Positions 36,355 through 59,260 of a DNA stretch of 64,000 nucleotides are shown piece by piece. Positions within the stretch are counted from its first letter, which is position 1; each line of letters opens with the position of its first letter. The position numbers and the translations under genes are program-made. This stretch comes from Escherichia phage BP9. Under the pieces are notes generated by a model that was not told the origin of the DNA, ran no database searches, and saw only the letters and a program-made list of their open reading frames with translations. The stretch lies in the sequence record PP488543.1; one strand, given 5' to 3'.

Positions 36355-36389
36355 AATAAAAAGGGGCCGTTTGGCCCCTTTCTTTTTAT
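36355..36389. terminator. bidirectional intrinsic terminator between convergent gene blocks
   Basis: aggggcc-gttt-ggcccct hairpin flanked by an A-run upstream and a T-run downstream; lies between the 36345 stop (+) and the 36392 stop (-). Confidence 0.75.
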
Positions 36390-39830: not shown

Positions 39831-40064
39831 TTAATCTTCGTAAATCAGGATTTCTGCTTTAGGTTTTCGTGCTTTCAAGTCCAGCTCTATCCAGTGCACC
39901 ATAGCTGTTTCAAGAAAAACAGCTTGGATGCATCCGTCCTCAGCGTGCCCCACCAACATAACAAGATCTTCACCTTCGTCATCTGCATCACGAACATACA
40001 GAATATCTCCAGATTCAAAGTCTTTCACAACCTGATTGCTGGATAATTTACGAATTTTTGCCAT
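39831..40064 (-). CDS. hypothetical protein (77 aa)
   Basis: ORF in the co-directional block. Confidence 0.3.
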   Translation of the reverse strand: MAKIRKLSSNQVVKDFESGDILYVRDADDEGEDLVMLVGHAEDGCIQAVFLETAMVHWIELDLKARKPKAEILIYED

Positions 40065-40065
40065 A

Positions 40066-40329
40066 TCAGAAACCCTCTAAAAAGCTCTTGTAGAAAACAA
40101 TCTCAGTATCAACACCAGTCACGATCTTGTCGTTCCGGATTTCATCGGTAAGATAGGTGTCAAAACGCAGAACCTGTGTGGTGTTGTCACACATCCACTC
40201 AGCTGTGACCATTGCGAAAATCTTAGCATCTTCATTATCTGGTGTGAATGTTACCACCTCGCCGCATTTAAACTTTTCGATAGGTTGCGTGTTAGCTTTC
40301 GGTTCTGCAATAGTGATTTTCGTGGTCAT
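40066..40329 (-). CDS. hypothetical protein (87 aa)
   Basis: ORF in the co-directional block. Confidence 0.3.
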   Translation of the reverse strand: MTTKITIAEPKANTQPIEKFKCGEVVTFTPDNEDAKIFAMVTAEWMCDNTTQVLRFDTYLTDEIRNDKIVTGVDTEIVFYKSFLEGF

Positions 40330-40595
40330 TACTCTTCCTCCATAGTTTCACCAAATACTTCGATACGAGCATCGAGCTCGGTTGCTTTCAGCTCCCCAAC
40401 AAAATCTTTTAGTTCTTTCTCATCCAGATCGTAAGCCCACACACAAGAAGAACATGCAGATTTCACAATCAGCAGCGTAGATACACGACCTGACTCTGTG
40501 ATCATGCTCACAATGGTCCCCACAGGGAACGTGTTGATAGCTTTTTTAACTGGACGTTCAGCTTTAATTACTACCTCTGTTGCCATAAATAACAT
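40329..40595 (-). CDS. hypothetical protein (88 aa)
   Basis: ORF in the co-directional block. Confidence 0.3.
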   Translation of the reverse strand: MLFMATEVVIKAERPVKKAINTFPVGTIVSMITESGRVSTLLIVKSACSSCVWAYDLDEKELKDFVGELKATELDARIEVFGETMEEE

Positions 40596-40601
40596 CCTCT
40601 C

Positions 40602-42083
40602 TTACTTAGCGTACTCGATTAATTCCACAGTTTTACCAAAGCTAGGGATATAATTTTTATTATACCCTTCGGTGAGAACCCATAAAGTATCGTACTTTTT
40701 CCACTTGTTGTCAACAGCCTTTTGTTCAAAGTTATGCTCAAAGTATAGGTCGGTCAGGACGATGACATCTTTTGCATTTGGTATGTTGGCATCCAGATAC
40801 TCGAACACGCAAGCAGCTGTTGTGCCCCATGTTGAGTGGACCTCATAGTTGATCATTTCGTCTATGTTGCCGCGAGTATATACTTTAACCTCTCCGACTT
40901 CAGTTGACCAACAGAACATTGTAACCTTAAACTCTTTATACAGATTGCACAATCCGGTGATTTCATTGAACATTTTCTTTAAAGTTCTTTGAGAGATCGA
41001 GCCAGAAACGTCTAAAGCTACCACAATATCTATGGTGTTTTCCGGATTACGACCAGGAACAATAACGTGCTGGTTCTTGTTTATAGCCCCAACTTTTCGC
41101 ATTGTGCTGGTCAAAGACCCAGATCGGCGACCAGGTTTTCTGTAGGTCAGTTCGGCCTTTCGTTTAGACAACATGCGTTGCTTAATGATGTCTATATAGT
41201 TGATTACAGGCTTACCTCTGTTCTTGACAAACTCACGCACCGCCTCGGGGCAACGACCTCCGGAAGCTTGCATTGCTGCTTCCAGCATGTCACCAGAGTC
41301 TTGCATGGCCTGATCTTTATCAGATTGGCTGATTACAGGTTGTGGCTGATCATACCCCATAGCCTTTCCAAGATCATCGCTGGTGCCACCGTTCCCACTC
41401 ATGTGATCATCGGTTTGTCGCTTATCCCCTTGAGAGTTCTCACCTTTACCGCTCTTACTTTTACCGTTATTCTGATCTCTTTGCTTATCAAGAACCGCAT
41501 AGACGTTCTCAGCAATCCATCCATGAAACCTCATGTCGCAGTAGCAGCTGGCTAAGAAACCAAAAGGCTTACCTTTCACGAACGTAGTGCTTTTCCCCTT
41601 CGGGAAGAAAACACAGGGAGGCTTGCTAAAGTCAACCACAAGACCTGTGTTGATAACATGATCACAAGCAATATTAAACAGTTCCGGCTCGAAGCTTTTA
41701 CCACGGACCAGGTGATCACAGATAATATGCCCCACCTCGTGTGACAGAAGAAAAGCCACCTCTTTCACAGATTTGGGAGAATAGAAAACCTCAGCCATCT
41801 CAAACTGTTCGTCAGTTAGAGAAGCCTTAAGAATAGCCTTGCGTTCATCAGCCAATCCCATAATGAACTCAGGGCTGTAATAGATGCGTTTATGGTCGGT
41901 TGCCATGGTGGAGCACCATGTGTGGTTTTCTACGAACTGCAATCCTGACAGCAGTGTGCCATAAAACGGCAGCTTTTCAAGGAGATACATACGTGCAGCC
42001 TGCAACATTCTCAGGGCATCATCTTTCTGTGAGGCAATGATTTCTGAACTTCTGCTATCCATTAAAACTCCAGAAGGGGCCAA
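40602..42083 (-). CDS. VWA-domain protein with N-terminal zincin-like (HExxH) domain (DUF2201-type), 493 aa
   Basis: HEVGH metallopeptidase motif (LLSHEVGHIICDH) in the N-terminal half and a MIDAS motif (IVVALDVSGSIS) in the C-terminal half. Confidence 0.7.
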   Translation of the reverse strand: MAPSGVLMDSRSSEIIASQKDDALRMLQAARMYLLEKLPFYGTLLSGLQFVENHTWCSTMATDHKRIYYSPEFIMGLADERKAILKASLTDEQFEMAEVFYSPKSVKEVAFLLSHEVGHIICDHLVRGKSFEPELFNIACDHVINTGLVVDFSKPPCVFFPKGKSTTFVKGKPFGFLASCYCDMRFHGWIAENVYAVLDKQRDQNNGKSKSGKGENSQGDKRQTDDHMSGNGGTSDDLGKAMGYDQPQPVISQSDKDQAMQDSGDMLEAAMQASGGRCPEAVREFVKNRGKPVINYIDIIKQRMLSKRKAELTYRKPGRRSGSLTSTMRKVGAINKNQHVIVPGRNPENTIDIVVALDVSGSISQRTLKKMFNEITGLCNLYKEFKVTMFCWSTEVGEVKVYTRGNIDEMINYEVHSTWGTTAACVFEYLDANIPNAKDVIVLTDLYFEHNFEQKAVDNKWKKYDTLWVLTEGYNKNYIPSFGKTVELIEYAK

Positions 42084-42095
42084 TGGCCCCTGTCA

Positions 42096-43151
42096 TTATT
42101 TAACGTGTTTGAAAATACCTGCCAACTCGGTCATTGTCATGCGGGTGGTCTTCATAAGATCTGTCATAGCTTTCTCCATAATTGGAGATACTACCATAAA
42201 GTTACCCTTGGTGAAACCTTTATTCCAGTCGGTCACTAATAGTGGTTTAAGTCCGACCCCGAGACGCTCACCAGTTAAAGCACAACATTTTCGAATGTAC
42301 GTGCTCTTAAATTGACTGAATGACAGATCAACTTTCATACCTGCATCGTAGAACGTCTGACAATAGAAAGTGTAAGCTTTGGCAATCTCAACATCGTCAG
42401 GCAGTGCAGGAACCTCTTCTGTGAGCTCTTCTTCGTCCCCTTGAGGCTCTTTTTCCTCTTCGTAAGCCTGTTGCGCCACTTCTTTAATCTCCTCTGCTGC
42501 AGGCTCGTTTACAATGTCAGAAATGTGCTTGTTGGCTCCACGGTTAGCCATGAAGTTTTTAAAATCCTGCATTGGTGACATATCTTCCTCCCATTCTTCG
42601 TCAAAGAGTGCCAGTTTATCCTCTTCCGTCCCATATTGCAAGATGAAATCTTCAAAAGTGTAATCACCTTTCAATTTCTCCATGCGCTCTTCGCTCAGGT
42701 GGAGCATCATCTGCTGGACAATTTTTCGATCAGTTTTGTCTTTAATCAAGATTGCGGTCTTTTTATCTACCAGGCAGTCTTTCAGAGAGTTACACCTCAA
42801 TCCTACCACACAACAGTTATCAATTGCGTAAGGACCTTCATCATCTATCCGCTCCAGAGATGGGTAGAAAGGATTCCCCAGCCCGTTTTCATCTGTGTAC
42901 ATGTCGAAAGGTATAAGGGTATAGTCGCATACCCCCTCTCCTAAAAGTTTTTTACCAAATAGGAGGTATTCTTCCCATGACAGGTTGAACTCTATATCCC
43001 GTTTCCGTGCATTATTCTGTTTGCGTCTATATTTTTTGAGCAGGCGCTCTAACTCTTCTGGTGTATAATATTTTTCAAGATTCATGAGTTGTCTCTTGTG
43101 CTCTGTAGGTGAAGAAATCTTATCAAGTGCCTCAACAGATGTCAACCTCAA
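42096..43151 (-). CDS. hypothetical protein (351 aa) with acidic linker
   Basis: TTG start at 43151 in the track; first gene of the minus-strand block, read from a divergent promoter region; no family recognised. Confidence 0.4.
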   Translation of the reverse strand: MRLTSVEALDKISSPTEHKRQLMNLEKYYTPEELERLLKKYRRKQNNARKRDIEFNLSWEEYLLFGKKLLGEGVCDYTLIPFDMYTDENGLGNPFYPSLERIDDEGPYAIDNCCVVGLRCNSLKDCLVDKKTAILIKDKTDRKIVQQMMLHLSEERMEKLKGDYTFEDFILQYGTEEDKLALFDEEWEEDMSPMQDFKNFMANRGANKHISDIVNEPAAEEIKEVAQQAYEEEKEPQGDEEELTEEVPALPDDVEIAKAYTFYCQTFYDAGMKVDLSFSQFKSTYIRKCCALTGERLGVGLKPLLVTDWNKGFTKGNFMVVSPIMEKAMTDLMKTTRMTMTELAGIFKHVK

Positions 43152-43158
43152 AAACGTG

Positions 43159-43187
43159 TTGACTTTACCCTAAATCCACGATATAGT
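43159..43187 (+). promoter_or_regulatory. sigma70-type promoter (TTGACT-17 bp-TATAGT) for the plus-strand accessory block
   Basis: -35 at 43159-43164, -10 at 43182-43187 in the divergent intergenic region; AGGAG Shine-Dalgarno precedes the ATG at 43228. Confidence 0.5.
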
Positions 43188-43227
43188 GCACCCATTCGAA
43201 AGAAAACGAACACAGGAGTACTTAATC

Positions 43228-44127
43228 ATGGCAAATCTTAACAGCTTTAGCACTCGGTGGAAACAAGATATCACAACCAATCTCTCAGCAGGCGATATCC
43301 TTTCTGCAATTTACGAGGCTTTGGATGATAAAGCTACTTCAAAAGCGGTTTGTACCAACCCACTAATTCCTGTAGTGATGAAGGTTATTGAGCGTAGATT
43401 GGTATCTGGGTCTGATAAGTGGACATATTTAGATAATGAAGGACACACCTATTCCAATGGGTACGTCGATATAAAAGTAGAATACGCGGTATCATACCGC
43501 CGGAGCGGTTCTGTAACTTTCAACTTCTCTGGAGGTTTTCGATCTCTGGCTACCTCACCTTTTGTTTCCTCAGAGGAGAAGTATGAGCTTCCATTTCTTT
43601 GGATGATGGCTAACGCGACAGGAAAAACCCCCGTTAGCATCCGAGTAAAATACAACTACAACGGATCTAGTAAGATCTATGCCGAGAGTGTCTCAGCAAG
43701 TTTTTATTTTGTGATGGGGGATGGAATCCTCAAACATATAAAGATGTGCGATATGCATGATGTTATAAATGAAGTGACTGATAAGAATGTTCTGGTGAAG
43801 GATCTCAACAATTTTTATACACCCGGAGACTATTACGTCAGCCGTCCACTGTGCATCTTTAATGCCGCACACCCTCTAGGTGAGTATTTGATCGCCAATA
43901 GCGATATTGCCAATAACCGCTTCGAGGTAGCAAGAGTACAGAATGAGGTATTGACATCTTGCAAGAGCGGTGATAAGTTTACCGAAGAAGAGATGGGTGT
44001 TTTAGAAATGATGGGATATAAGTGTAGCCTTTGGGTAGATGAGGTGTTTAATGATTGCATCTATGGACAGGATATTTACCCATTAAAGAAGTATACTGAT
44101 TCCAGTTTAATTTACGCGGAGATTTGA
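43228..44127 (+). CDS. hypothetical protein (300 aa)
   Basis: ATG at 43228 with AGGAG Shine-Dalgarno; the track start at 43186 overlaps the promoter -10. Confidence 0.45.
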   Translation: MANLNSFSTRWKQDITTNLSAGDILSAIYEALDDKATSKAVCTNPLIPVVMKVIERRLVSGSDKWTYLDNEGHTYSNGYVDIKVEYAVSYRRSGSVTFNFSGGFRSLATSPFVSSEEKYELPFLWMMANATGKTPVSIRVKYNYNGSSKIYAESVSASFYFVMGDGILKHIKMCDMHDVINEVTDKNVLVKDLNNFYTPGDYYVSRPLCIFNAAHPLGEYLIANSDIANNRFEVARVQNEVLTSCKSGDKFTEEEMGVLEMMGYKCSLWVDEVFNDCIYGQDIYPLKKYTDSSLIYAEI

Positions 44128-44402
44128 CTATGATGAAGTCATGTGGTAGTGTATATTATGTTGGTGAGAATGTTCAGGCAGATAGTGTGTGGAAATCCAT
44201 TAAGTCCACCACCGATGATGCCTTTCTGAGCGGGTTATGCTTTCCCAGCCCAGGGGACACTCTCCCTTACCCTGGAGATTTTGTTGTCAACAAGATGGAC
44301 GGTTATACCGTGTGCCTGATGGTTGAAAAAATCTTTTTAGACACTAGACACAATCACCGTCTTGTGTTAAAATTTCAAGAATGTAAAATGACAATTGCCT
44401 AA
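44124..44402 (+). CDS. hypothetical protein (92 aa)
   Basis: 4-bp start/stop overlap with the upstream gene. Confidence 0.35.
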   Translation: MTMMKSCGSVYYVGENVQADSVWKSIKSTTDDAFLSGLCFPSPGDTLPYPGDFVVNKMDGYTVCLMVEKIFLDTRHNHRLVLKFQECKMTIA

Positions 44403-44415
44403 GGAGACCTTGCCG

Positions 44416-44772
44416 ATGTCTAAAGTTACTTATCGTGCAGCTATTTACTGCAATGAACACCCAATCTATAATGATGGTCACTGCCTTTTTAAAGAAAATC
44501 AATTGGGCTGTATTGTCCTCCCTGATGAAGGTGAAGGTTATCTGATTGCGTTGACAGGGTTTGAACCTGAAGCTCTGGAAACCAATCTTGACTACCTGGT
44601 AGAAGAGGGTGCTGCAGACCTGGTTGCCAATGGCCTATCCGTAAGCCTTGATGAAGTGGAGCGCTTCATGGGCAATTACCGTGTAGTGCGTGAGTTTACT
44701 ATCGAGGTGGAAACTCCAGAGTGGGGTAGCACTGAAACTAATGCCGAAGAAAAAGAAGAGGAGGTAGAATAA
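44416..44772 (+). CDS. hypothetical acidic protein (118 aa)
   Basis: ATG at 44416 preceded by TAAGGAGA; the track start at 44395 is less likely. Confidence 0.4.
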   Translation: MSKVTYRAAIYCNEHPIYNDGHCLFKENQLGCIVLPDEGEGYLIALTGFEPEALETNLDYLVEEGAADLVANGLSVSLDEVERFMGNYRVVREFTIEVETPEWGSTETNAEEKEEEVE

Positions 44773-45029
44773 TGAAAGTGCAGATCTTGACTAATGCCGA
44801 GAAGATGTTTATTGAAGATACACCTTTTGAAGCTGGTGAGCTACAGTTCGTTTATTTTGTTGACTTAGATAAGGTGTTCCCTGCACTGAATCTGGGTCTG
44901 GATGAAGTTCCTCATAAGGTTTTGTGCCAAGTTGTTCGTGCCTTAGCGGCAGAGGGGGAGTTCCACACCCTTCAAGATATCCAGACCTACGGGTATCTTG
45001 AACTACAACGAGAAGAAGAGGTGGACTGA
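44772..45029 (+). CDS. hypothetical protein (85 aa)
   Basis: Stop/start overlap with the upstream gene. Confidence 0.35.
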   Translation: MKVQILTNAEKMFIEDTPFEAGELQFVYFVDLDKVFPALNLGLDEVPHKVLCQVVRALAAEGEFHTLQDIQTYGYLELQREEEVD

Positions 45030-45031
45030 TA

Positions 45032-45412
45032 ATGGCTCAGTGGAAGACAACAGTTGACCTTCATGATCAGTGGTTAGGACGCATCACTGAAGACGGGAAG
45101 TTAGTTGAGTGGGACAATAAGCATGTTAGCGAGTTGGCAAGTATTGTGGCTGGCAAGTTACGATCCAAGTTCCCTGAACAACTGGATCCTGATAGTTCAA
45201 AGTTCGATCCTGAGTTGGAGGATGTTGTATACTACTTCGACACCGTGGATGACTACGATGCGTGGTTTGCAGCACGGGAGCTTTACCCACAAGGATCTGC
45301 TATGCGCCAGATGGAAGAAGATTATCCTCCGTGCGAGCAATTCAATAGTGCAATGACTTGCCTCTACGATTGGGCAGATAAGAACCTTGTCTGGATTCGG
45401 ACTGCATTTTAG
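45032..45412 (+). CDS. hypothetical protein (126 aa)
   Basis: Tightly packed ORF. Confidence 0.4.
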   Translation: MAQWKTTVDLHDQWLGRITEDGKLVEWDNKHVSELASIVAGKLRSKFPEQLDPDSSKFDPELEDVVYYFDTVDDYDAWFAARELYPQGSAMRQMEEDYPPCEQFNSAMTCLYDWADKNLVWIRTAF

Positions 45413-45456
45413 TGGGCAGGAATGGCGGCAAGGATGCTGCTTAAGGAGTAGTAGAG

Positions 45457-45726
45457 ATGTTATACCAGCAATATGAACTTCGTGCAGAAAAAGAGTTAAA
45501 TTTTGACAAAGATATTCACAGATATTATTATGGGAAAGTTAGAGGGCAAGCAAGAAAGTGTACTCCAACACTCTTTTATGCCAGCAGACGACTAGCGCCA
45601 GAAGAGGCAACAGCAGAAAGGGTTGCGTACAACTGGAGAGTCACGTATGATATTGACAGATCCGATGTGATATCTGTTTTGGAAAACTTTGAAAACACTT
45701 ACACACAAGTAGAGGACTTTTACTAA
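45457..45726 (+). CDS. hypothetical protein (89 aa)
   Basis: Tightly packed ORF whose stop overlaps the ATPase start. Confidence 0.35.
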   Translation: MLYQQYELRAEKELNFDKDIHRYYYGKVRGQARKCTPTLFYASRRLAPEEATAERVAYNWRVTYDIDRSDVISVLENFENTYTQVEDFY

Positions 45727-46910
45727 TGTCAAGAAACGTATTTGAAAGTGGTCAAATCACTGTCCGTGAGTTGCCAGCTATCATTCAGTTTGCCCAGCGT
45801 CATAACCGATCTGTCCTGATTTTAGGACCAATGGGTGTGGGAAAGAGCCAGGTGATGAAGCAGATCGCAGACAATATGTTCGGTGAGCGAGATGACAACT
45901 TGGTTGACGTGCGGTTGTCAGATAAAGATCCTGCCGACTTATCTGGGCTACCTATCCCTGTAGAAGCGGATGGAACTACACGTACAGTGTTTGCAATTCC
46001 AGAATTTTGGCCTGCGGATCCTGGCTGGAGCGGAATTATCTTTCTGGATGAGCTCACTCATGCAGATAACTACCTGCAAAAGGTTGCAATGCAAATTATG
46101 CTCGACCACAAGTGCGGTACCTATGCATTCCCTAAAGGTTCTGTTTTTGTGGCTGCTGGTAACCGTTCTACAGATGGTGCGGTTCTTTCGGCGCTCGAAG
46201 CCCCTCTGGCTAACCGTTTTATCATTGTAGAAGTTACAAGCAATGCAGAGGTGTTTATTGAGGACTACGCATTCCTTAATGGGGTGCACTCCTCTGTAAT
46301 TGGATATTTGAAAAGAGTTCCATCAGCTATCGATAATTATGAGGCTATGGCTGAGATTAATTGTCCATCTTTTGCCACACCACGATCTTGGGTTGCTGCA
46401 TCTGACATCTTGCACGATTTTGACAGCGGTATTATTTCTGACGCTATGGCCCGTGTTCTTCTGCAAGGTGCTGTTGGTCACACTGCAGCGGTAGAGATCT
46501 GGACTTACCACATCAAGAAACGTAACTTACCGGAAATCGGTCGGATTATGGCAGGAGGTTGCAAAGAATATGTAGGTCCTAAACAGCCAGACATCTTGTG
46601 GATTCTTGGATCTGAAGGTTGTATCGCTATTCGTAATATGATGGAAAATGCAAGTATCTCCGACGAAGATCTTGTTAGCTGTGTGGCAAACTTCCTCGAT
46701 TTCCTTTGGGAAAATTTCAAGGACGAGAACCGAGATTTTGTATTCTCAGTCTTTATGGCGATGATGAAACCTAATGCCTTAGGAAATGCCTTGCTTATCG
46801 GTAAAGGGCGTGACAAGATTGTTGCTCAGCTGATCAAAGCATACCCAAACCTAATGAAGATTGTAAAAGAGTTTGGTGAAGAGTTTAGCGCCATTTTGGC
46901 TAAAGCTTGA
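45726..46910 (+). CDS. MoxR-type AAA+ ATPase (AAA_5 family)
   Basis: Walker A LILGPMGVGKSQ, Walker B IIFLDELTHA, sensor region VFVAAGNRSTDGA..LANRF typical of MoxR/RavA-like ATPases. Confidence 0.8.
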   Translation: MSRNVFESGQITVRELPAIIQFAQRHNRSVLILGPMGVGKSQVMKQIADNMFGERDDNLVDVRLSDKDPADLSGLPIPVEADGTTRTVFAIPEFWPADPGWSGIIFLDELTHADNYLQKVAMQIMLDHKCGTYAFPKGSVFVAAGNRSTDGAVLSALEAPLANRFIIVEVTSNAEVFIEDYAFLNGVHSSVIGYLKRVPSAIDNYEAMAEINCPSFATPRSWVAASDILHDFDSGIISDAMARVLLQGAVGHTAAVEIWTYHIKKRNLPEIGRIMAGGCKEYVGPKQPDILWILGSEGCIAIRNMMENASISDEDLVSCVANFLDFLWENFKDENRDFVFSVFMAMMKPNALGNALLIGKGRDKIVAQLIKAYPNLMKIVKEFGEEFSAILAKA

Positions 46911-46919
46911 GGAGGTTGT

Positions 46920-47300
46920 ATGGCTAAAGTAGGTAAGCGGGGAAACTACTTGGTAGTATTGACCGAGGAGCCGGAGAAGGAGTACGAATGCAGCTCCACT
47001 TGCGTGATCGATATCCGAGAAAAAGATGTAGATGAAATCTGGTTTGAAATATTAGACGCTTGCGACAGCAGTGATTATTTCTTCATCTATGTCAACGATA
47101 AAGCCGGGTTCTTCCATGACGACGGAGAGTTGCCGTATGAAATCTATGAGCTTGTAGAGGCTTGCCATCGTGGAGATGCGGAGTTGTTTGGCTTACGGCT
47201 GAAAAGCGGTAAATTCTTCTATCAAGATGAGTGCATGAATCTTCATAACTTTGTAGAGGGAACTTGCAACGATGGAGAGATTTTGGTACACTACGATTAA
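46920..47300 (+). CDS. hypothetical acidic protein (126 aa)
   Basis: ORF followed by a strong terminator. Confidence 0.4.
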   Translation: MAKVGKRGNYLVVLTEEPEKEYECSSTCVIDIREKDVDEIWFEILDACDSSDYFFIYVNDKAGFFHDDGELPYEIYELVEACHRGDAELFGLRLKSGKFFYQDECMNLHNFVEGTCNDGEILVHYD

Positions 47301-47311
47301 TTTCTAAGACA

Positions 47312-47340
47312 CCCCCGCTTCGGCGGGGATTTTCTATTTG
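47312..47340 (+). terminator. rho-independent terminator (ccccgc-UUCG-gcgggg + T-rich)
   Basis: Same hairpin core as the terminators at 15348 and 21161. Confidence 0.75.
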
Positions 47341-47348
47341 GAGTTATT

Positions 47349-47849
47349 GTGAAAATTAAGATCTTTGCTATTATTTTGAGCGCACTTTTATCGCTGCCTG
47401 TTGTTGCAGCACCAAAACAAAAAGTATATCATACTTGCAAGCCATCGGATACTAAGGAAAACATTCTGGCATGCAATATCTACAGGGAAGCTAGAGGAGA
47501 TGGCACGATGGGTATGCTGGCATCTGGGTTTGCCACCCTAAACAGGAAATCTCATCCCAAATACCCGGACACTATAAGAAAGATTGTCTACCAACCTAAT
47601 CAGTTTTCGTGGACAACCTACGGCAAAACTTTTAAGGTGACAGAAAAAGATTCATGGGATCACGCTAAAAGTCTTGCAAAGATGCTTCTAAAGGTCTATA
47701 ATAACAACCATGTTGCATACATGGCTATGGATATAACAGGTGGAGCAACACACTACCATACGACCAAAGTACGACCGAAATGGGCAAAAAAGATGCAGAG
47801 GACAGCTCAATTCGGGAGTCATATCTACTACAAGGAGCGCAATAAATGA
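47349..47849 (+). CDS. secreted cell-wall hydrolase, SleB/CwlJ (Hydrolase_2) family, with N-terminal signal peptide
   Basis: GTG start after GGAG. Signal peptide MKIKIFAIILSALLSLPVVAAP. Conserved block NIYREARGDGTMGMLASGFATLNRKSHPKYPDTIRKIVYQPNQFSW matches the SleB-family consensus (..EARGE..GQ.AVA.V..NR..S..FP.T...VVFQP.QFS). Confidence 0.7.
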   Translation: MKIKIFAIILSALLSLPVVAAPKQKVYHTCKPSDTKENILACNIYREARGDGTMGMLASGFATLNRKSHPKYPDTIRKIVYQPNQFSWTTYGKTFKVTEKDSWDHAKSLAKMLLKVYNNNHVAYMAMDITGGATHYHTTKVRPKWAKKMQRTAQFGSHIYYKERNK

Positions 47850-49838: not shown

Positions 49839-50738
49839 ATGATTTTCATCTACGAACATTTCAAAACCCGTAAAGAAGCAAGAGACCGCCGTGCAGAACT
49901 TGAGAAGAAGGGTTTCATATGTGCCATTGAGAAAGGCGACACAACCTGGACACTGGCAGTTGGTGCCCCAGAGTTGTTCGATCCTGACCGTGACAGCGTC
50001 TGCTACACCCGTGAAGATTTTGAAACCCGCGAAGAGGCCCGTTTATTTCGATACGGTCTGGAAGATAACGGTAAGTACGCCATGATCTTAGATTTAGGCG
50101 AAGGGTCCGTTAAACGTTGGGGCGTGGTATACCCACTGTGTGTTGTTCATGGTGTGGGGTTCACTGGGGTAGCAATCAAGTCAGAAGAACCTTTAGTAGA
50201 AGTCAAAGATCCGGTGCTGGAGGTGGTGAGCAGTGTATCTCAGCAACAGACTCGAAGTATTGAGCCTTTGGTAGTTATTTGTGGGGAACTCCTCCAGATC
50301 ACCTGCAACGAAGGCATTTTTGAAATTCGCCGCAGTGAAAGTGAGGAAGTTTACCAGAAAGTCTTCGACCATATCTCTGTCCAGAAATATGACGAGGCAA
50401 TTGGTGAAATCCTTGTCTGGTTGGAACGCAAGAATGAGTTCACTACACTTGCAGACAACCTGATCATGAAAGATGGTAAGCTCTACTACTACGGTGTAGA
50501 GATGCGATCCACCATTGCAAAGAAAATTGAGAAAGATTATGCAGACGGAACACTAGATGACCGCTATGTGAAATTCCTAGTTCGCCTGCTACGCAATCCT
50601 TCTGCAAAATCTGTAAACATGCTCTACGATTTTATGCAGGCCAACGATATCCAGCTTGCAGAAGATGGTCGAATCATTTGCTACAAAGGAGTTCATTTTC
50701 CATCGTTTTTTTGCCGAGCAGGAGCTGGAGTTCTTTAA
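49839..50738 (+). CDS. hypothetical protein with two N-terminal repeats; 3' end replaced by IS2 sequence (possible rIIB-like partner, unverified)
   Basis: Repeats [19 protein letters not shown] / [18 protein letters not shown]; the last ~17 codons are encoded by IS2-derived DNA (IS2 homology begins at about 50688), so the native C-terminus is lost. Confidence 0.4.
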
Positions 50739-50976
50739 TCTGCTTCATGGCAGCAGCAAGTTCAGAGGCAGGAACGACCTGTTCTCCTGCGGCCACAGCA
50801 GTAAGACTTCCCTCCTGGTATTGCTTGCGCCAGAGAAATAACTGGCTGGCTGCCACACCGTGTTGCCGGGCAACAAGGGAGACCGTCATTCCCGGTTCAA
50901 AGCTCTGCTGAACAATAGCGATCTTTTCCTGTGTAGTACGCCGTCTGCGTTTCTCCGGTCCTAAGACATCAATCAT
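50674..50976 (-). pseudogene. insC: truncated IS2 insC (orfA) reading out of the IS fragment into phage DNA
   Basis: InsC N-terminal ~96 aa are intact, then the frame runs across the junction at about 50688 and terminates at 50674. Confidence 0.8.
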
Positions 50977-51067
50977 CTGCTCTCCAATGACTAGTCTAAA
51001 AACTAGTATTAAGACTATCACTTATTTAAGTGATATTGGTTGTCTGGAGATTCAGGGGGCCAGTCTA
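50688..51067 (-). mobile_element. IS2 fragment (left inverted repeat plus 5' part of insC/orfA), truncated internally
   Basis: Reverse complement matches the IS2 left end TAGACTGGCCCCCTGAATCTCCAGACAACCAATATCACTTAAATAAGTGATAG... and the start of InsC ([84 protein letters not shown]..); only ~380 bp of the 1.3-kb element is present. Confidence 0.9.
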
Positions 51068-51386
51068 TATTCCACGCTGTACTGCAGTGATGAATGGAGT
51101 ATCTTCTGATCTTATCGGTTCAAATTCGTTTCAGGTAAACCCATCTATTTTTCACAAACATACTAGTTCAATCGATGTCAATAATGGAATTCATTCTATG
51201 GCATACGATAATCACATGGCCTCTGGTAACATTGCAGAAACTGAAATATCTGAACTTACTCAGGATATTGTATCTAAAATAAAACTTGGTTATGCAAGTG
51301 AAACGACTTCTGGAGTTGATGTTGTTATTGCCAGAGTGCAGGTTATTTTTGATGGATTAACATCATCTGGAGTTTGCAGGAAATAA
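51068..51386 (+). CDS. 3' remnant of a gene interrupted by the IS2 insertion (product unknown)
   Basis: The frame is open across the IS2 end at 51067; the encoded C-terminal ~100 aa are Gly/Ser/Asn-rich; no family recognised. Confidence 0.3.
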
Positions 51387-51549
51387 ATTTTGGCAACTAA
51401 TAAACCGCCTTACATTTATGGTTGTTTATGAATATTGTCATCAAAAACCAATGAATTGATAGTTATTTCAGAATATCTGATGGTTAAACATATATGGTTT
51501 GTTGTGTGTGGTGAGCTGTAAGTGAAGAGGTTCGATATGTACAAAAAAA

Positions 51550-51966
51550 ATGGTGTGTGCTATGTCGGTTAACATAACAACTGAGTCTTTAAATCAATGG
51601 CTTAGTGTGAGCTCTCTTGCTGCGGTTATCGTAGGCGTTCCGCCAGAGGTGGCGCTCGGTGCTCTTGCTGGCGCGGTAATTTTTGTTACCTCTGCGGTAG
51701 AGTATCCAATTCGTCGTCGCGTACTCTTGTCGATGCTCAGCTTTCTCTGCGGACTTCTTTTCTACAAACCAGCAGCATCAATTCTTATCGGCATAGCCAG
51801 CCTGATCCCTACCATCACGCAGGACTCTTTTGAAAAAGGTATTGTTTTCTCTGCTGGCGCATTCGTGTCAGCAATTGTCGCTGTGCGTATTGGTATATGG
51901 CTCTACCACCGTTCAGACAATCCACGCGATTTAATTCCGGGGAGAAAAGACGATGGTAACGCATGA
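51550..51966 (+). CDS. putative holin (multi-pass membrane protein, 138 aa)
   Basis: 3-4 predicted transmembrane helices; first gene of a cassette containing endolysin and spanins; alternative in-frame start at codon 5. Confidence 0.5.
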   Translation: MVCAMSVNITTESLNQWLSVSSLAAVIVGVPPEVALGALAGAVIFVTSAVEYPIRRRVLLSMLSFLCGLLFYKPAASILIGIASLIPTITQDSFEKGIVFSAGAFVSAIVAVRIGIWLYHRSDNPRDLIPGRKDDGNA

Positions 51967-52261
51967 GTTTTTTTTGCTTATCACCAATGCAGTTATTTGT
52001 ACTGGCATAGCAATTCGCGTTGTCACATTCCGGCGTAACGGATCTCAACACCGAAGATGGGGTGGGTGGATTGCTTATTTCCTGATTGTTGCTGCGGCCA
52101 GTATTCCTGTTCGTGTCGTTTATGCAATCTGGTTACGCACGCCAATGGCTGTGGATTTATCTGAGGTCATTATCAACGCTGTCATGCTTGCTGCGGTTAT
52201 TAAAACGCGCGGTAACGTCGTTCAGATTTTCAAAATAACGAGGTCTAAACATGGAGATTAA
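51953..52261 (+). CDS. putative second lysis membrane protein (holin/antiholin-like, 102 aa)
   Basis: Three hydrophobic helices; overlaps the holin stop and the endolysin start. Confidence 0.45.
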
Positions 52262-52880
52262 ACAATTCCAGCGAGCTGCTGGTATTAGAGAGGCGCTGGC
52301 CGCTCGCTGGTTCTCGCATATAACTTCTGCGATGAAAGAGTTTGGTATCAGCAAAGCAGAGGATCAGGCAATGTTTATTGCTCAGGTCGGGCATGAATCT
52401 GTGGGCTTCACCAGATTGCAGGAGAATTTCAACTACAGTGTCAGCGGTCTGGCTAACTTCGTTCGGGCTGGGCGTCTCACTCAGGGGCAGGCTAATGCAC
52501 TGGGTCGCCGTGCTGGTGAACCACCATTGCCACTCGAGCGCCAGCGAGCGATCGCCAATCTGGTGTACAGCAAACGCATGGGGAACAATTCCCCTGGTGA
52601 CGGCTGGAATTACCGAGGCCGTGGACTTATCCAGATTACCGGTTTGAATAACTATCGTGACTGCGGAAACGGCCTGAAAGTGGACCTGCTGGAGAATCCT
52701 GAACTGTTAGCGCAGGACGAATATGCGGCTCGTAGCGCGGCGTGGTTCTTCTCCAGCAAAGGTTGCATGAAGTATACCGGCGATATTGCACGTGTAACTT
52801 TGATTATCAATGGTGGCAGGAACGGCATCGACGACCGGAGAGCGCGGTACATCACTGCCAGTAAGGTGCTGGCGGTATGA
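52251..52880 (+). CDS. endolysin, glycoside hydrolase family 19 (chitinase-like lysozyme)
   Basis: GH19 signatures ([12 protein letters not shown] ... [16 protein letters not shown]) in a lysis-cassette context. Confidence 0.8.
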
Positions 52881-53359
52881 TCTGGGCATTCGTAAAAGCA
52901 TACTGGAAACAGTTGCTTATCGTGGCGGTGCTTGCTGTTCTGGTCATATCAGGGGTTGTTGCCTGGAATGTACACGGTAGTCGTCAGTACGACGCCGGGT
53001 ATGCACAGGCGAAAGAAGACCGCAAAACCGAAGATGAGAGAGTTCGTCAGCACTACGAACAGGAGAAATCGATCAATGAACGTGAAGCGCAGCAGAGGAT
53101 CGACCAGGCGCGCAATGATGCTCTTGATGCTGCCGCTCGCGCTGGCCGGTTGCAGCAACAGCTCGTTGCCATCCGTGAGCAGCTCAGGCAGTATAACGCC
53201 ATTGTCGGCGCTGGGACGTCAGCCGCAGACACCGGAGTTTTGCTTGCCGACGTGCTCAGTAAATCTCTCGAGAGAAACAGACAACTGGCAGAGTATGCTG
53301 ACCGGGCAGCCGAAGCCGGAAGAGTCTGTGAAAAACAGTACGACACCCTGACCAGATAG
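52877..53359 (+). CDS. Rz: i-spanin (Rz-like)
   Basis: N-terminal transmembrane segment ([18 protein letters not shown]) followed by coiled-coil periplasmic domain; contains an embedded lipoprotein gene in another frame. Confidence 0.65.
53076..53351 (+). CDS. Rz1: o-spanin (Rz1-like outer-membrane lipoprotein) embedded within Rz
   Basis: ATG at 53076 preceded by AGGAGAAATCGATCA; lipobox LALAGC ([30 protein letters not shown]), Pro-rich mature part; entirely inside the Rz gene in a different frame. Confidence 0.7.
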   Translation: MNVKRSRGSTRRAMMLLMLPLALAGCSNSSLPSVSSSGSITPLSALGRQPQTPEFCLPTCSVNLSRETDNWQSMLTGQPKPEESVKNSTTP

Positions 53360-53532
53360 CATGGCATTTTTCATGGTACTGATTTCCGGTGACGGTATAT
53401 AAAACGGTACGGTAAAAATTGAGATTTGGAAAAATGTTATCACTCAATTGGTTATGGTATCCGTAAATAATTGAGTGGGAATGATTAACAGCTAACTCAT
53501 AGCAAATCATTCCTATTCAGATGCTAACTCAA

Positions 53533-53566
53533 CCCTCTGTTTTTGCAGAGGGTTTTTGTTTTTATG
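53533..53566 (+). terminator. rho-independent terminator downstream of the lysis cassette
   Basis: ccctctg-tttttg-cagaggg hairpin followed by tttttgtttttat. Confidence 0.6.
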
Positions 53567-53676
53567 TATTCATTTCTATTCACTCTACACCATATTTTTC
53601 GGCGGTACAGGTGACGGTATTACCTTAAAGGTATACTCTCATACCGTCATGAAAATGGTTTCTATATGGGTGAATT

Positions 53677-54933
53677 GTGCTTACCGATACAAAATTAAAA
53701 AACCTCAAGCCGCAGGACAAACTGTACAAGGTCTCCGACCGTGACGGGCTGTATGTAGCTGTGCTTACGTCAGGCACGGTCTCGTTTCGCTATGACTACC
53801 GTATCAACGGTCGCCGCGAAACACTGGTAATCGGGCAGTATGGGCGTGACGGTATCAGCCTGGCAGAAGCGCGAGAAGAACTGATTGCTGCAAAGAAGCT
53901 GCTTAAAGCAGGCCAGTCACCGGCTGCGGCTAAACGTGACGGTATCAAAAAGATTCGTGGTGCCGAGACGTTTGCGGTACATACCGACAGTTATATGAAA
54001 CACGTCATCCTGGCTGACAGTACCCGCGCAATGAAGCAGGCGGTGATCGACCGTGACATACTTCCGGTTCTTGGCAACAAAATGATGGCTGAAATTACCA
54101 CATCGATGGTTCGTGATTTGTGTGACCGGATTGTCGAACGCGGTGGTCGGGCAACAGCAGTACAGGCCAGGGAGATCATCAGCAGCGTATACCGTCACGC
54201 CAATGACCGTGGTCATGGTTTGTTTAATCCTGCGGCTGACATTAAACCTTCGTCTATCGCCATATTTAAACCACGAGAGCGAACACTGACACCAGAAGAA
54301 ATTGGCCTGTTCTTCCGCACGCTGGATGCCATTGGTGCTATGGGCACTATGAAAATGGCTTTAAAGCTGGTGCTTATCACTATGGTTCGTAAAGGCGAAT
54401 TCACCAATGCAACGTGGGATGAAATAGATTTTAAAAAATGGACATGGACAATTCCTTCAGACCGCATGAAGGGAAGCCGGGCGCACGTTATTTACCTGCC
54501 TAAACAGGCACAGGATATATTGGTTGGGTTGCAGATGTGCGCTGGTGGAAGTGAATATCTGGTTCCTGGTCGTTACAATTTCCGGAAGCCATTATCTAAT
54601 GCCGCGCTGAACTCTCTGATCGACAGAACGGTGAAAATAATAAATGAAGATGGTGAGCATATTCAGGGCTTCACCGTACACGATATGCGCCGTACAGCCA
54701 GTACGTTGTTGCATGAGGCTGGTTATCCTTCAGACTGGATTGAAAAGGCGCTGGCACATGAGCAGAAAGGTGTGCGCGCCGTATATAACAAAGCGGAATA
54801 CGCCAGACAGCGCGCCTGGATGTTGCAGCAGTGGGCCGATATGATTGATTCCTGGATTAACGGGGAGCATACGGATCTGATTCCGTTCTCCCCGTCGAAG
54901 TTTGAGAGGTGGATGGAAGACAGTAATAAATAA
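53677..54933 (+). CDS. int: tyrosine integrase, P4-like family
   Basis: N-terminus MLTDTKLKNLKPQDKLYKVSDRDGLYVAVLTSGTVSFRYDYRINGRRETLVIGQYG is the classic P4-type integrase arm-binding domain; the C-terminal catalytic region contains HDMRRT and a tyrosine near the end (RAVYNKAEY). Confidence 0.9.
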   Translation: MLTDTKLKNLKPQDKLYKVSDRDGLYVAVLTSGTVSFRYDYRINGRRETLVIGQYGRDGISLAEAREELIAAKKLLKAGQSPAAAKRDGIKKIRGAETFAVHTDSYMKHVILADSTRAMKQAVIDRDILPVLGNKMMAEITTSMVRDLCDRIVERGGRATAVQAREIISSVYRHANDRGHGLFNPAADIKPSSIAIFKPRERTLTPEEIGLFFRTLDAIGAMGTMKMALKLVLITMVRKGEFTNATWDEIDFKKWTWTIPSDRMKGSRAHVIYLPKQAQDILVGLQMCAGGSEYLVPGRYNFRKPLSNAALNSLIDRTVKIINEDGEHIQGFTVHDMRRTASTLLHEAGYPSDWIEKALAHEQKGVRAVYNKAEYARQRAWMLQQWADMIDSWINGEHTDLIPFSPSKFERWMEDSNK

Positions 54934-54935
54934 TT

Positions 54936-55595
54936 CTATCCTTCCTGGACTTTGGTAAGCGTCAGATTTCCGCAGAACACTGCGCCGGTGTCGATGTACA
55001 TCTGGTTTGCATACACCAGTGGGTGATGTGCTGGCGTATGACCGAAGATGAACAAATCGGCACCGGTTATCTCCGAGACAATACCGTCCTGCGCGTCGCT
55101 AACCCGCTCACGATTCCATATCACCATTTCTTCTGGTACTGGCTTATCGAATGCGTATTCGTTGTGCGGGTAGTCTGCGTGACAGATGACGACCTTCTTA
55201 TTGCCGGTAACCAGTTCGATAATCATCGGGAGGTTGGTAATCTTTGGCAGAAGGTATTTGAGTTGCACATCCTGCTCAGAATCAAGTTGGTGCCACCATC
55301 CACCGCCGTTTGACATCCAATGTCCGAAACTTCCGCCGTTGACCAGTGCATCCAGCATCATCTGCTCATGGTTGCCACGAACAGCTCGGAACCACGGCAT
55401 AGTAATCAAATCCAGGCATTCGACGTTTTCAGCGCCGCGGTCAACAAGGTCACCAACGGAAATAAGTAAATCGCGCGCCGGGTCGAATGAAACTTTGTCG
55501 AGTTCGTTCATCAGCAGCGTGTAGCACCCATGCAGATCGCCGACGACGAAGATATTGCACCAGTCAGCACCATTGATGCGTTGATATAGGTTCAT
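54936..55595 (-). CDS. Ser/Thr protein phosphatase (lambda NinI / PP-lambda-like metallophosphatase)
   Basis: Metallophosphatase motifs GDLHGC, GDLVDRG, GNHE. The probable start is the internal Met ([12 protein letters not shown]) at about 55595, giving ~219 aa and a 4-bp overlap with the upstream gene; the track ORF extends to 55715. Confidence 0.85.
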
Positions 55596-56242
55596 GCTGC
55601 ACGCTCCCGCCCCTGGTTGTCTATTGGTGACACCGGAGCATTGCTGAATGCATTTGTTAATCCGCCAATATCCAACGCGTATCCAGGGTGTAGTTGCACT
55701 ACCGGGTCTTCGCACTGATTACCCCAAACATCGAAGCCATGAGACGTCTGGCGGGCGAACAGTTCAATGCGAGAAACATCGCCTAACAATTGCACAAGTT
55801 TTTCACGAACGACATCTGGTTTTCTTGAATGCTCAAGCCGCGGTGCGGTAAATGCCTGAACGATCCCTGCATTAATGCGTGGAGGTAGTTTTCCCTTTAC
55901 TGCAAACAGGCAATCTTCACTATTGGCGCGAGTCATGTGTCCCATACCCATAACCAGTTTATCTGGTTGTCGACTACCACATTTTATCCACGTGAAGCCC
56001 TTCATCGTCATCAGACGAAATCCCCAGGCTTCAACAACTTTTAGTGCTTCGAGTGGTTGTGTTGGCACCCACCACATGGCCAACAGACAGTTTTCATCGG
56101 CCAAATCCCACACAGGAAGGCGGCAGATATCCAGCACACTCATAACCGGATATTTAAAACCGGCACCGCGATTACCATCTGCGGCTTTGTCCCGGTATAC
56201 CCAGGGTGGATCTGCATAGATTAGCGTGTATTTCTTAGTCAT
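55592..56242 (-). CDS. MT-A70 family N6-adenine DNA methyltransferase (orphan, no cognate nuclease seen)
   Basis: Catalytic DPPW motif ([10 protein letters not shown]) and the MT-A70 fold pattern. Confidence 0.8.
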
Positions 56243-56534
56243 AAACCACCCCGCAACATCCTATGCCGCTATAGTCGCCACGGCGAAGGCCGTTACCTTT
56301 TGTGATACATTGGTCCCTGCGAACCGCGATCCTTGCACGCTCAACATCACCAGAAGCAACATCCATACACTTAAGCCAAAGGTGAGCGGCAATGCGGAAC
56401 TGTCCTTTTTTCTCTCTTTCAATTGCGCGTTTTTCGAACTCTATCGCCGCAGGAGTAACGGCGACAATCTTTGACGGACTGCGCATTGAAACCTTGTTCA
56501 TGTGATATTTTTCAAGTCGGCTTAACTTTCTCAC
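56235..56534 (-). CDS. hypothetical early protein (99 aa)
   Basis: ORF in the leftward early operon overlapping the methyltransferase start; no family recognised. Confidence 0.35.
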   Translation of the reverse strand: MRKLSRLEKYHMNKVSMRSPSKIVAVTPAAIEFEKRAIEREKKGQFRIAAHLWLKCMDVASGDVERARIAVRRDQCITKGNGLRRGDYSGIGCCGVVYD

Positions 56535-56643
56535 TTAATCCAACCCTCTCTGAAAATTAATGCCAGCAGATAAAGCCATGCTGAAACAGAGGCCAGGAAT
56601 AAGTACCATCCTGACCATTTGCTCCAGTGCCTTAGCAGCACAC

Positions 56644-56892
56644 TCATGCAGCGTTGCTCACAGGACGATATACACGTTGCTGAACAGGAGGCTTTTTACC
56701 CTGGAACTCTGCCGGGCTTGCTGCCTGACGTTCATCAAGCCAACGCTCAACTTCATCACGGTTCCATGCGCAGCGTTTGTCAGTGATATACCAGCGTTTA
56801 GGAAATTCCCCTGCGCGCTCCATGCGGTCGATAGTGCTCCATGACAGTGGCACCACCGCCAGGAGTTCCTTCTTACCTAATGCACCTTTCAT
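56644..56892 (-). CDS. AlpA-family transcriptional regulator / putative excisionase
   Basis: MerR-like helix-turn-helix (..ELLAVVPLSWSTIDRMERAGEFPKRWYITDKRCAWNRDEVERWL) typical of AlpA/Xis proteins that accompany P4-type integrases. Confidence 0.6.
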   Translation of the reverse strand: MKGALGKKELLAVVPLSWSTIDRMERAGEFPKRWYITDKRCAWNRDEVERWLDERQAASPAEFQGKKPPVQQRVYRPVSNAA

Positions 56893-56941
56893 AAATACCT
56901 CTCTTGGTTGCAGTGCGGCGCGCGTGGCGCCGCGGTGGTGG

Positions 56942-57910: not shown

Positions 57911-58701
57911 TCAGGGCGTTTAATGATTTCCACACCGCCCCATTCATCATTGATGCGGCATTCGTGATAGGTATTCAGATCCCGGCGGAACAGAGCGTGC
58001 CCGGCATCGACATCCTGCGCATCCAGCTCGAACACGCGTACCGGATACCGACCACAATCAATGCTTTCGCTCACGGCAAGAAAGAAAAAACCATGCGGCT
58101 GACCAGTAACCCTCATTGCGCCTTCGCGGTACATTGCGTCCTGCACGTGGTAGCGGAATTCCTCGATGTGGCGTGCAAAACGGTCCATATCTGCAACCTT
58201 TTTCACGTCGACGATCACGTTGTGCTCGTTCAGCCATTTGTCTGGACGAATTCGGCACAACTCACCCGTCTCTTCATCGTTCCAGTACATTGACGCTTCG
58301 CAGTAACCAGGTGCTTCCAACATCCAGCGTGCAGCCGGGTGAGCCATTGTGCTATCACGCATCAGCTCCAGTTTTCGCCACTGCTCGACATCAAGTACCG
58401 TAATACCCATATCCGCCACATCACGAAGAAATGCTTCTTCGTCAGCTTTACCTTGTTTTGTCCGACGATCGAATTTCGGTGAAACGATGAAGCGTTTGTC
58501 GAATTCTCCAGGTTCCAGAAGCAGACAGTGCAATGCGGTTCCCATATCCAGTGCAGACTTTTTCTCTTCGTCTTCTGGTGCTGCCTGAACCCATTTAAGA
58601 AGCGCCGGATTCTTGGCAACCATGTCAAGTTGCGACTTACTCACGCCGTCACCGGCGTGGTAGTCTTCGTTGCTGATGCCGAAATAAATTCCCGGTTTCA
58701 T
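57880..58701 (-). CDS. PD-(D/E)XK-family phage exonuclease (YqaJ/RecE-like recombination exonuclease)
   Basis: Catalytic motif arrangement (..CRIRPDKW..VIVDVKKV..) and genomic pairing with a RecT-like gene. Confidence 0.55.
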   Translation of the reverse strand: MKPGIYFGISNEDYHAGDGVSKSQLDMVAKNPALLKWVQAAPEDEEKKSALDMGTALHCLLLEPGEFDKRFIVSPKFDRRTKQGKADEEAFLRDVADMGITVLDVEQWRKLELMRDSTMAHPAARWMLEAPGYCEASMYWNDEETGELCRIRPDKWLNEHNVIVDVKKVADMDRFARHIEEFRYHVQDAMYREGAMRVTGQPHGFFFLAVSESIDCGRYPVRVFELDAQDVDAGHALFRRDLNTYHECRINDEWGGVEIIKRPEWARKQDMYI

Positions 58702-59249: not shown

Positions 59250-59260
59250 TGTGTAGACAA

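Follow-up and report, generated by a model that had tools for sequence, protein, structure and literature searches.

A MoxR-class ATPase and a zincin-VWA protein encoded in divergent operons of an rV5-like coliphage: a conserved pair with a candidate role in counter-defence

The 64,000-nt stretch of Escherichia phage BP9 DNA analysed here (PP488543.1; referred to throughout as the window) encodes an AAA+ ATPase on its plus strand and, on its minus strand, a protein that carries an N-terminal zincin domain and a C-terminal VWA domain (the partner). A distance of 3.66 kb separates the two genes, which lie on opposite strands and in separate transcription units (Table 1). Positions 1-50699 belong to a Vequintavirus (rV5-like coliphage). 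Matches to positions 40000-47500 were found in 121 phage records (90-97% nucleotide identity), of which almost all are from Vequintavirus (rV5-like E. coli myophages), and the gene order of the window is identical to that of phages magaca and MaxBurger/Bas54. By position, the minus strand carries small open reading frames (ORFs), the partner gene and an anti-sigma-like gene, and the plus strand a 'fucosyltransferase' gene, four small ORFs, an 89-aa ORF, the ATPase gene, a 126-aa ORF, a SleB-like hydrolase gene, rIIA and rIIB. A sequence-only reading of the window had proposed that the ATPase and the partner, although separated, are the two halves of a MoxR-VWA chaperone or remodelling pair, and both ORFs lie where it had placed them.

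Table 1. Coordinates of the ATPase and partner genes, their motifs and the features around them in the window.
Feature	Position	Strand	Remarks
Partner gene	40602..42062	-	486 aa, zincin-linker-VWA; orthologue of Bas54_0055, N4 gp25 family
HEVGHIICDH codons	41712..41741	-	Zincin HExxH and invariant downstream His; H108, E109, H112, H117 (486-aa numbering); translation-checked
TYRKPGRRS codons	41121..41147	-	Near-invariant Y-x-R-P-x-R-R motif just before VWA domain
DVSGS codons	40998..41012	-	First MIDAS element; alignment invariants
MIDAS element GT	within 40818-40829	-	Alignment invariants
MIDAS element TD	within 40746-40757	-	Alignment invariants
ATPase gene	45726..46910	+	394-aa MoxR-class AAA+ ATPase; orthologue of Bas54_0063, N4 gp24 family
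Walker A, GPMGVGKS	45825-45848	+	
Walker B, IIFLDE	46035-46052	+	
Sensor 1, AAGNR	46152-46166	+	
Arg finger, LANRF	46206-46220	+	
Sensor 2, ATPRS	46374-46388	+	
Divergent intergenic region	43086-43227		142 bp
Sigma70-like promoter	43145..43117	-	TTGACA-17-TAAGAT with TG; consensus scan
Sigma70-like promoter	43159..43187	+	TTGACT-17-TATAGT; consensus scan
Anti-sigma-like gene	42096..43085	-	First gene of presumed minus-strand early operon, upstream of partner; start MNLEKYY
G+C-rich palindromic hairpin, GGGGCCATTGGCCCC	42077..42091	.	Between anti-sigma-like stop and partner ribosome-binding site
89-aa ORF	45457..45726	+	Stop overlaps ATPase start (TAATG)
Intrinsic-terminator-like hairpin, CCCCGCTTCGGCGGGG + T-run	47313..47328	+	One gene past ATPase

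The partner exhibited both domains expected from its description as a VWA protein with an N-terminal HExxH domain. It passed the Pfam gathering scores of DUF2201_N (PF13203; 7.1e-28, 98.4 bits, cutoff 23.2) and of the VWA-like DUF2201 (PF09967; 3.6e-11, 43.7 bits, cutoff 26.4), in that order from the N to the C terminus. The start at 42083 given by the sequence-only reading did not hold: ATG 42062 is most likely the initiation codon rather than TTG 42083, because a GGAG lies 8 nt upstream of it, GenBank records also give 486 aa, and the TTG falls inside the hairpin at 42077-42091. The zincin domain spans about residues 1-205 and is followed by a disordered linker (about residues 200-235), a helical region and the VWA domain (about residues 340-486). 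An AlphaFold model (predicted local distance difference test, pLDDT, 83) showed a helical N-terminal domain, a compact VWA domain and a disordered linker at about residues 209-235 that is rich in Lys, Gly, Ser and Asp.

An alignment of 36 homologues (21-82% identity; residues in 493-aa numbering) showed that H115, E116, H119 and H124 of the HExxHxxxxH motif are invariant, as is D141. Also invariant are the residues of the metal-ion-dependent adhesion site (MIDAS): D358, S360, G361 and S362; G420 and T421; and T444 and D445. Judged by these residues, the zincin site of the partner is intact and its MIDAS complete (DxSxS, T, D). From the sequence we infer that the zincin would be an active protease. 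R319 and R320 of the YxRPxRR motif are kept in at least 90% of homologues, and this segment is a candidate docking or processing site. Profile similarity of the zincin domain to known proteases was weak (minigluzincin MJ1213, E 0.005; the M48 proteases BepA and HtpX, E >0.1). A sequence search of the PDB with the partner protein alone gave no match, and a profile search gave VWA matches and weak zincin hits.

The family to which the partner belongs comprises 14,347 clusters at 50% identity (E<=1e-30), and no paper in the searchable literature gives DUF2201 proteins a function. In GenBank records that match the window, the partner is labelled 'metallopeptidase' or 'VWA-like domain containing protein'. 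Other labels are misleading, namely 'HNH endonuclease' (PHROG 1314, RefSeq) and, in some GenBank records, 'anti-sigma factor' or 'DNA repair ATPase'; we rejected all three, as the N-terminal domain is a zincin.

The ATPase was harder to classify. Taken alone, it scored below every Pfam and NCBIfam threshold (AAA_5, 16.8 bits, cutoff 22; bpMoxR, 15.2, cutoff 27; AAA_3 unlisted). In direct profile searches of Pfam, NCBIfam, PADLOC and, by sequence, the PDB, all matches were to P-loops and below threshold, for example those of ClpB/ClpC and of sigma54 activators. We regarded these matches as generic AAA+ similarity and did not use them. No PADLOC family matched either the ATPase or the partner beyond weak P-loop hits. 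The homologues of the ATPase gave a clearer picture: those found at 1e-41 to 1e-44 (34% identity, 85% query coverage) carry AAA_3 and AAA_5. In an alignment of 28 homologues, 17 from the Vequintavirinae clade and 11 environmental, the AAA_3/AAA_5 models were passed by all 11 environmental sequences, while none of the 17 clade members reached E 1e-3. The family profile matched the AAA_5 modules of midasin at 8.5e-11. Across all 28 sequences G37, G39, K40 and S41, D108 and E109, N146 (sensor 1), R164 (Arg finger) and R220 (sensor 2) were invariant.

The predicted fold pointed the same way. The closest PDB neighbours of an AlphaFold2 model of the ATPase (pLDDT 85) were NorQ and CbbQ (Foldseek E 2e-8 to 6e-8; template modelling score about 0.65 over the AAA+ module, on the target). 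In the model, residues 75-81 and 84-90, which lie between Walker A and B, are the strands of a hairpin, and the strand of sensor 1 is preceded by short strands at about 129-134; these helix-2-insert and pre-sensor-1 hairpins were read from the secondary-structure string, not from superposition. Therefore, although the AAA_5 profile test of the earlier assignment fell short of its threshold, the ATPase belongs to the MoxR/AAA_5 class, on the basis of AAA_3/AAA_5-bearing homologues (transitive homology), the midasin profile match, the NorQ/CbbQ-like fold and the conserved motifs. It is also labelled 'MoxR ATPase' in GenBank. The C-terminal 130 or so residues form an extra helical domain, after about residue 260, for which no match was found.

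NorQ/NorD and CbbQ/CbbO share with the phage proteins an ATPase of this fold and a VWA partner with a MIDAS; the phage ATPase differs from NorQ and CbbQ by its additional helical domain of some 130 C-terminal residues. In cryo-electron microscopy structures of NorQ/NorD, a finger of the VWA domain inserts into the pore of the ATPase, which in turn remodels the linker of its partner (PMC13036017). The likeness raises the possibility that the phage pair is an auxiliary metabolic one of NorQ/NorD, CbbQ/CbbO or CobS/CobT type, which inserts a metal cofactor or activates an enzyme. We consider this very improbable. Although NorQ and CbbQ are the closest solved structures and NorD is among the VWA hits of the partner, the similarity to NorQ/CbbQ is at the level of the fold (15-21% identity). 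NorD and CbbO, which serve metal insertion into nitric oxide reductase or Rubisco activation, have no protease domain, whereas the N-terminal domain of the phage partner is a zincin with an invariant HExxH and not the N-terminal domain of NorD, CbbO or CobT; metal insertion of the CobS/CobT or NorQ/NorD type was rejected on this ground. In addition, no annotated candidate client metalloenzyme lies beside the pair in the phage loci examined.

Are the ATPase and the partner halves of one cognate pair? We addressed this by comparing loci in which homologues of the ATPase occur. Of 80 IMG/VR loci fetched with the ATPase alignment, 69 have an ORF of the DUF2201_N-DUF2201 type directly after the ATPase gene and in the same orientation, typically about 75 nt away; nine of the 11 exceptions stop too soon to leave room for a partner. 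The pair is also adjacent in large metagenomic contigs with phage-like gene content and in Aeromonas phage 2L372X. In Certrevirus DU_PP_I the two genes are neighbours with two small ORFs between them, and in the N4-like phage Jura they are gp24 and gp25, separated by one small ORF. Jura gp25 matched DUF2201_N at 1.3e-86 and DUF2201 at 1.9e-46. By tblastn, 573 phage records contain the partner and 783 the ATPase, and the two sets are distributed similarly over hosts.

The two proteins also diverge together. The identities of the ATPase and the partner to their homologues are 99 and 99% in Bas54 (Vequintavirus), 49 and 45% in PVP-SE1 (Seunavirus), 36 and 35% in DU_PP_I (Certrevirus), 32 and 27% in the Aeromonas phage 2L372X, and 27 and 21% in the N4-like Jura; that is, both fall in the same rank order over the five relatives. 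The split, divergent layout is common to Vequintavirus and Seunavirus PVP-SE1 only, and in the other relatives the genes are neighbours. Because PVP-SE1 has the same arrangement at 45-49% identity, the split appears from these comparisons to be old, and both genes are intact despite it. Together with the depletion of both genes on one host in Bas54 (below), the adjacency and the parallel divergence support the proposal that the two genes encode the halves of one cognate MoxR-VWA pair. We further infer that the two proteins bind each other in the window phage.

The pair is not confined to phages. On the chromosomes of Sulfurivermis fontis (AP018724) and of a gammaproteobacterial metagenome-assembled genome, the same two families are adjacent and co-directional; the S. 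fontis ATPase (BLAST, 32% identity over 274 aa, 6e-38) passes Pfam AAA_5. Here the context is cellular: genes for thioredoxin, Hsp15, HtpG, ferrochelatase and Lon, among them proteostasis and redox genes, flank the bacterial pairs, and in S. fontis the ferrochelatase gene lies two genes downstream of the pair. Among phages, gp24 (an AAA+ ATPase) and gp25 are core genes of the N4-like phages (Schitoviridae), in which they are middle genes (PMC7650795, PMC4193335). The N4-like pair is homologous to that of the window; relative to the Vequintavirinae proteins, gp25 is without a zincin insertion of about 45 residues and without the long disordered linker.

Functional data come from Bas54, which by its coordinates is Escherichia phage MaxBurger (MZ501093). 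The window ATPase is identical to Bas54_0063 at 390 of 394 positions and the partner to Bas54_0055 at 481 of 486, gene order and divergent layout are the same, and nothing material differs; by this near-identity, the Bas54 data transfer directly to the window genes. Bas54 was subjected to transposon mutagenesis in the HIDEN-SEQ preprint (10.1101/2025.11.20.689424), and our counts of TA sites in the ATPase and partner genes (64 and 86) agree with the table given there. On E. coli K-12 both genes were non-essential, with insertions at 60 of 64 sites in Bas54_0063 and 81 of 86 in Bas54_0055. Comparison of K-12 with CFE311, a clinical uropathogenic E. coli host that carries the two-gene predicted defence system DS-28, gave a log2 fold change of -7.23 for the ATPase (adjusted p 0) and, in a supplementary table, of -2.20 for the partner (adjusted p 0.009); genes 0056-0062 and 0064 were unaffected. 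Loss of Bas54_0063, or of Bas54_0140 (a gene for a hypothetical protein of 99 aa), is reported to make the phage sensitive to DS-28 cloned in a K-12 background. The authors do not comment on Bas54_0055 (10.1101/2025.11.20.689424).

These data make the statement of the sequence-only reading that the phage role of the pair is not established partly out of date, as the ATPase now has a phenotype. The knockout phenotypes that it had suggested as a check exist in part: the ATPase knockout is sensitive to DS-28, while the evidence for the partner is its depletion in a pooled library. Homologues of Bas54_0140 occur only within Vequintavirus, in 117 records with 80% identity or more, and a search of the window for one found none. 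A literature search found no description of the nature of DS-28. Two other phage essentiality papers do not mention the family, and CRISPRi-ART has no relevant data.

The same data bear on a role previously proposed for such a pair. Iyer, Anantharaman, Krishnan, Burroughs and Aravind (2021, Viruses 13:63; PMC7824862) described it in group 2.2 jumbo phages, with the same architecture of an ATPase and an N-terminal metallopeptidase fused to a vWA domain, and tblastn with both window proteins matched jumbo coliphages of the 121Q/GAP32 type at about 27-28% identity. The jumbo-phage genes have consecutive accession numbers and so are probably adjacent, in contrast to the window genes, which are split across divergent early operons. 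A role in virion assembly was proposed for them by analogy with the MoxR and VWA proteins of Acidianus two-tailed virus, which, as cited in PMC7824862 and PMC7159879, act in extracellular tail development (Scheele et al. 2011). As described in those citing papers, the latter is a virus-encoded MoxR and VWA chaperone, archaeal and without a peptidase domain, and we liken it to the window pair by that description only.

Applied to the window, this proposal would make the pair an assembly chaperone and maturation protease that folds or cleaves structural proteins during morphogenesis. The position of the partner gene, less than 5 kb from the end of a plus-strand block of large ORFs (unannotated, presumed to encode tail-fibre or structural proteins), would fit, as would the name 'tail protein' given to some RefSeq neighbours. 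However, about 94% of the TA sites in both Bas54 genes tolerate insertion on K-12, so infective virions form without them. The operons, moreover, have sigma70-like promoters and lie among genes of host-takeover type (anti-sigma-like, rIIA/rIIB), outside the structural module, and N4 gp24 and gp25 are middle genes next to a dCTP deaminase gene and the source paper does not name them as N4 virion proteins. Given the non-essentiality on K-12 and the early-operon context, virion assembly is disfavoured for the window phage, and we rate it as quite improbable, although other phage groups may differ.

A second possibility is that the pair has become uncoupled in Vequintavirus, with the ATPase acting alone or with Bas54_0140 against DS-28, and the zincin-VWA protein having a separate or decaying task. 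The location of the genes in separate divergent operons is in keeping with this, as is the 30-fold difference in their depletion on CFE311, where the authors highlighted 0063 and 0140 and not 0055. Nevertheless, the catalytic and MIDAS residues are intact throughout the Vequintavirinae, the two proteins diverge in parallel, and the split is old enough to be shared with Seunavirus without either gene having decayed. The partner was also significantly depleted on the same host on which seven of the eight other genes between it and rIIA were undepleted and the eighth, the cell-wall hydrolase gene, changed by a non-significant -0.88 (10.1101/2025.11.20.689424). We therefore think uncoupling unlikely.

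It is about equally unlikely, in our view, that the pair is a general host-takeover or proteostasis module unrelated to immunity, which remodels or degrades a host protein or keeps phage proteins soluble, so that the DS-28 phenotype is indirect. The thioredoxin, Hsp15, HtpG, Lon and ferrochelatase genes beside the bacterial pairs would be consistent with such a module, as would the very large size of the family and the presence of the pair in the core of N4-like phages whatever their host. Against it, the genes showed no fitness cost on K-12 in rich medium, and cloned two-gene DS-28 alone in K-12 reproduces the phenotype.

We propose, with moderate confidence, that the pair is a two-protein remodelling or proteolytic machine, encoded in early-type operons, which serves as an accessory counter-defence device: dispensable on K-12 and needed on hosts that carry DS-28. 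The ATPase would presumably form a hexameric ring, and the metal site of the C-terminal VWA MIDAS would grip an acidic residue of a client protein. By analogy with NorQ/NorD, the flexible linker may couple the adaptor to the ATPase, with the ring engaging either the linker or the YxRPxRR segment, and ATP hydrolysis may remodel the client or the adaptor; the N-terminal zincin would then cleave either the client or the adaptor. Both genes would be fired early from back-to-back host-like promoters. The client may be a defence protein, such as a component of DS-28, or a phage factor such as the Vequintavirus-only Bas54_0140. A more specific scheme, which we offer tentatively as a possible but not the expected outcome, is that of an ATP-gated protease: the MIDAS would capture the client and the ATPase would pull on the linker or the YxRPxRR segment, either unmasking the zincin or feeding it the client. 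In this scheme the pair would be a general counter-defence device of rV5-like, N4-like and jumbo phages, which in Vequintavirus destroys DS-28 components or matures Bas54_0140 into an inhibitor.

Several points weigh against a joint counter-defence machine. The neighbouring, co-transcribed genes expected of a cognate pair are found in the relatives and not in the window, where a gap of 3.66 kb and different transcription units separate them, unlike in almost all relatives. The partner phenotype is far weaker than that of the ATPase (-2.2 versus -7.2) and was not followed up by the authors. Experimental support comes from a single preprint, in which the two resampling tables both cite the CFE311 data file, and joint action of the ATPase and the partner against DS-28 is not demonstrated. 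The searchable literature shows no protease activity, complex, target or expression timing for any DUF2201 protein. Finally, the pair belongs to the core genes of N4-like phages and is found on bacterial chromosomes, too, beside proteostasis genes. Because of this last distribution, its ancestral role was probably broader than defence evasion, a general activity having been recruited here.

The surroundings of the two genes bear on how they would be expressed. The divergent promoter region that the sequence-only reading had put at about 43150-43230 is present, slightly to the left of that position: the intergenic region contains two back-to-back sigma70-like promoters (Table 1), which, judged by their consensus elements, would drive both divergent operons, one with the partner and the other with the ATPase. 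PVP-SE1, too, has an annotated promoter at the corresponding position. This arrangement suggests early expression of both operons. On the minus strand, the hairpin between the anti-sigma-like gene and the partner is a possible attenuator or RNA-processing stem and could set the level of the partner below that of the upstream genes. On the plus strand, the 89-aa ORF and the ATPase gene are probably translationally coupled, because the stop codon of the first overlaps the start codon of the second, and the terminator-like hairpin at 47313-47328 would end the operon.

The genes lying between the ATPase and the partner had been described as all uncharacterised, but one of them carries a label: 42096-43085 is annotated in GenBank as an anti-sigma factor (Srd-like). 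The labels of this gene conflict. Its strongest match is to PHROG 3118 ('HNH endonuclease'; 2.9e-110), as against weaker hits to T4 Srd anti-sigma factor, a sigma70 decoy and endonuclease VII, which cover the N-terminal third. The protein has an acidic, low-complexity middle region, and its gene exceeds those of Bas54 and magaca by four codons. In Bas54 the orthologue is dispensable and had no phenotype on CFE311. The 89-aa ORF is called 'ATPase' or 'MoxR ATPase' in databases (phrog_13164), yet it has no P-loop and the label is misleading; no homologue of it was found beside the pair outside the Vequintavirinae, and its orthologue Bas54_0062 had no phenotype. A conserved third small gene beside the pair was sought and not found, and among the ORFs flanking the pair only 45032-45412 has a Seunavirus orthologue. 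The first plus-strand gene, 43228-44127, is named 'putative alpha 1-3 fucosyltransferase' across the genus, a label inherited from rV5; its product matched nothing in Pfam or NCBIfam at E<=0.1 and only the unnamed PHROG 12338, and the label looks unsupported.

Other observations concern the window as a whole. At 36360-36381, where the long plus-strand block of large, probably structural ORFs meets the minus-strand early operon, lies a G+C-rich palindrome with a perfect 9-bp stem (AAAGGGGCC GTTT GGCCCCTTT), which from its sequence looks like a bidirectional terminator. The matches to positions 40000-47500 include 16 unannotated records called 'Campylobacter phage' (MG0656xx, host Campylobacter jejuni), which are 95-96% identical over the whole 7.5 kb; their host attribution looks doubtful. 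The window is composite. Vequintavirus homology ends at 50699, within rIIB, of which the ORF (49839-50738) has 299 aa in the window versus 401 aa in Bas54. The next 370 nt or so (50699-51066) are present in many copies in E. coli genomes and are presumably an IS2 end. Beyond that, from about 51067 to 64000, it matches with 100% identity a prophage region of phiV10/epsilon15 type in E. coli chromosomes, and the G+C content climbs from 0.44 to about 0.49. The window is probably a chimera of phage and host DNA produced during assembly and less likely a real recombinant.

The pair itself is already annotated, with orthologues in more than 100 GenBank genomes, and its architecture is published; as a sequence feature it is ordinary, and its value is that of a lead. 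What the present analysis adds is that the class of the ATPase stands on transitive homology and fold where the AAA_5 test fails, that the adjacency of the two genes is quantified, that the pair is linked to N4 gp24/gp25, and that published supplementary data implicate the partner beside the ATPase. The zincin-VWA proteins form a very large family, which is almost always linked to a single ATPase subfamily and belongs to the core of N4-like phages. The Bas54 transposon data provide the first phenotype, in counter-defence, for the ATPase, and taken with comparative genomics they suggest that the partner also takes part, which the authors did not highlight. This makes it possible to test directly, in a tractable coliphage, what N4 gp24/gp25 and DUF2201 proteins do.

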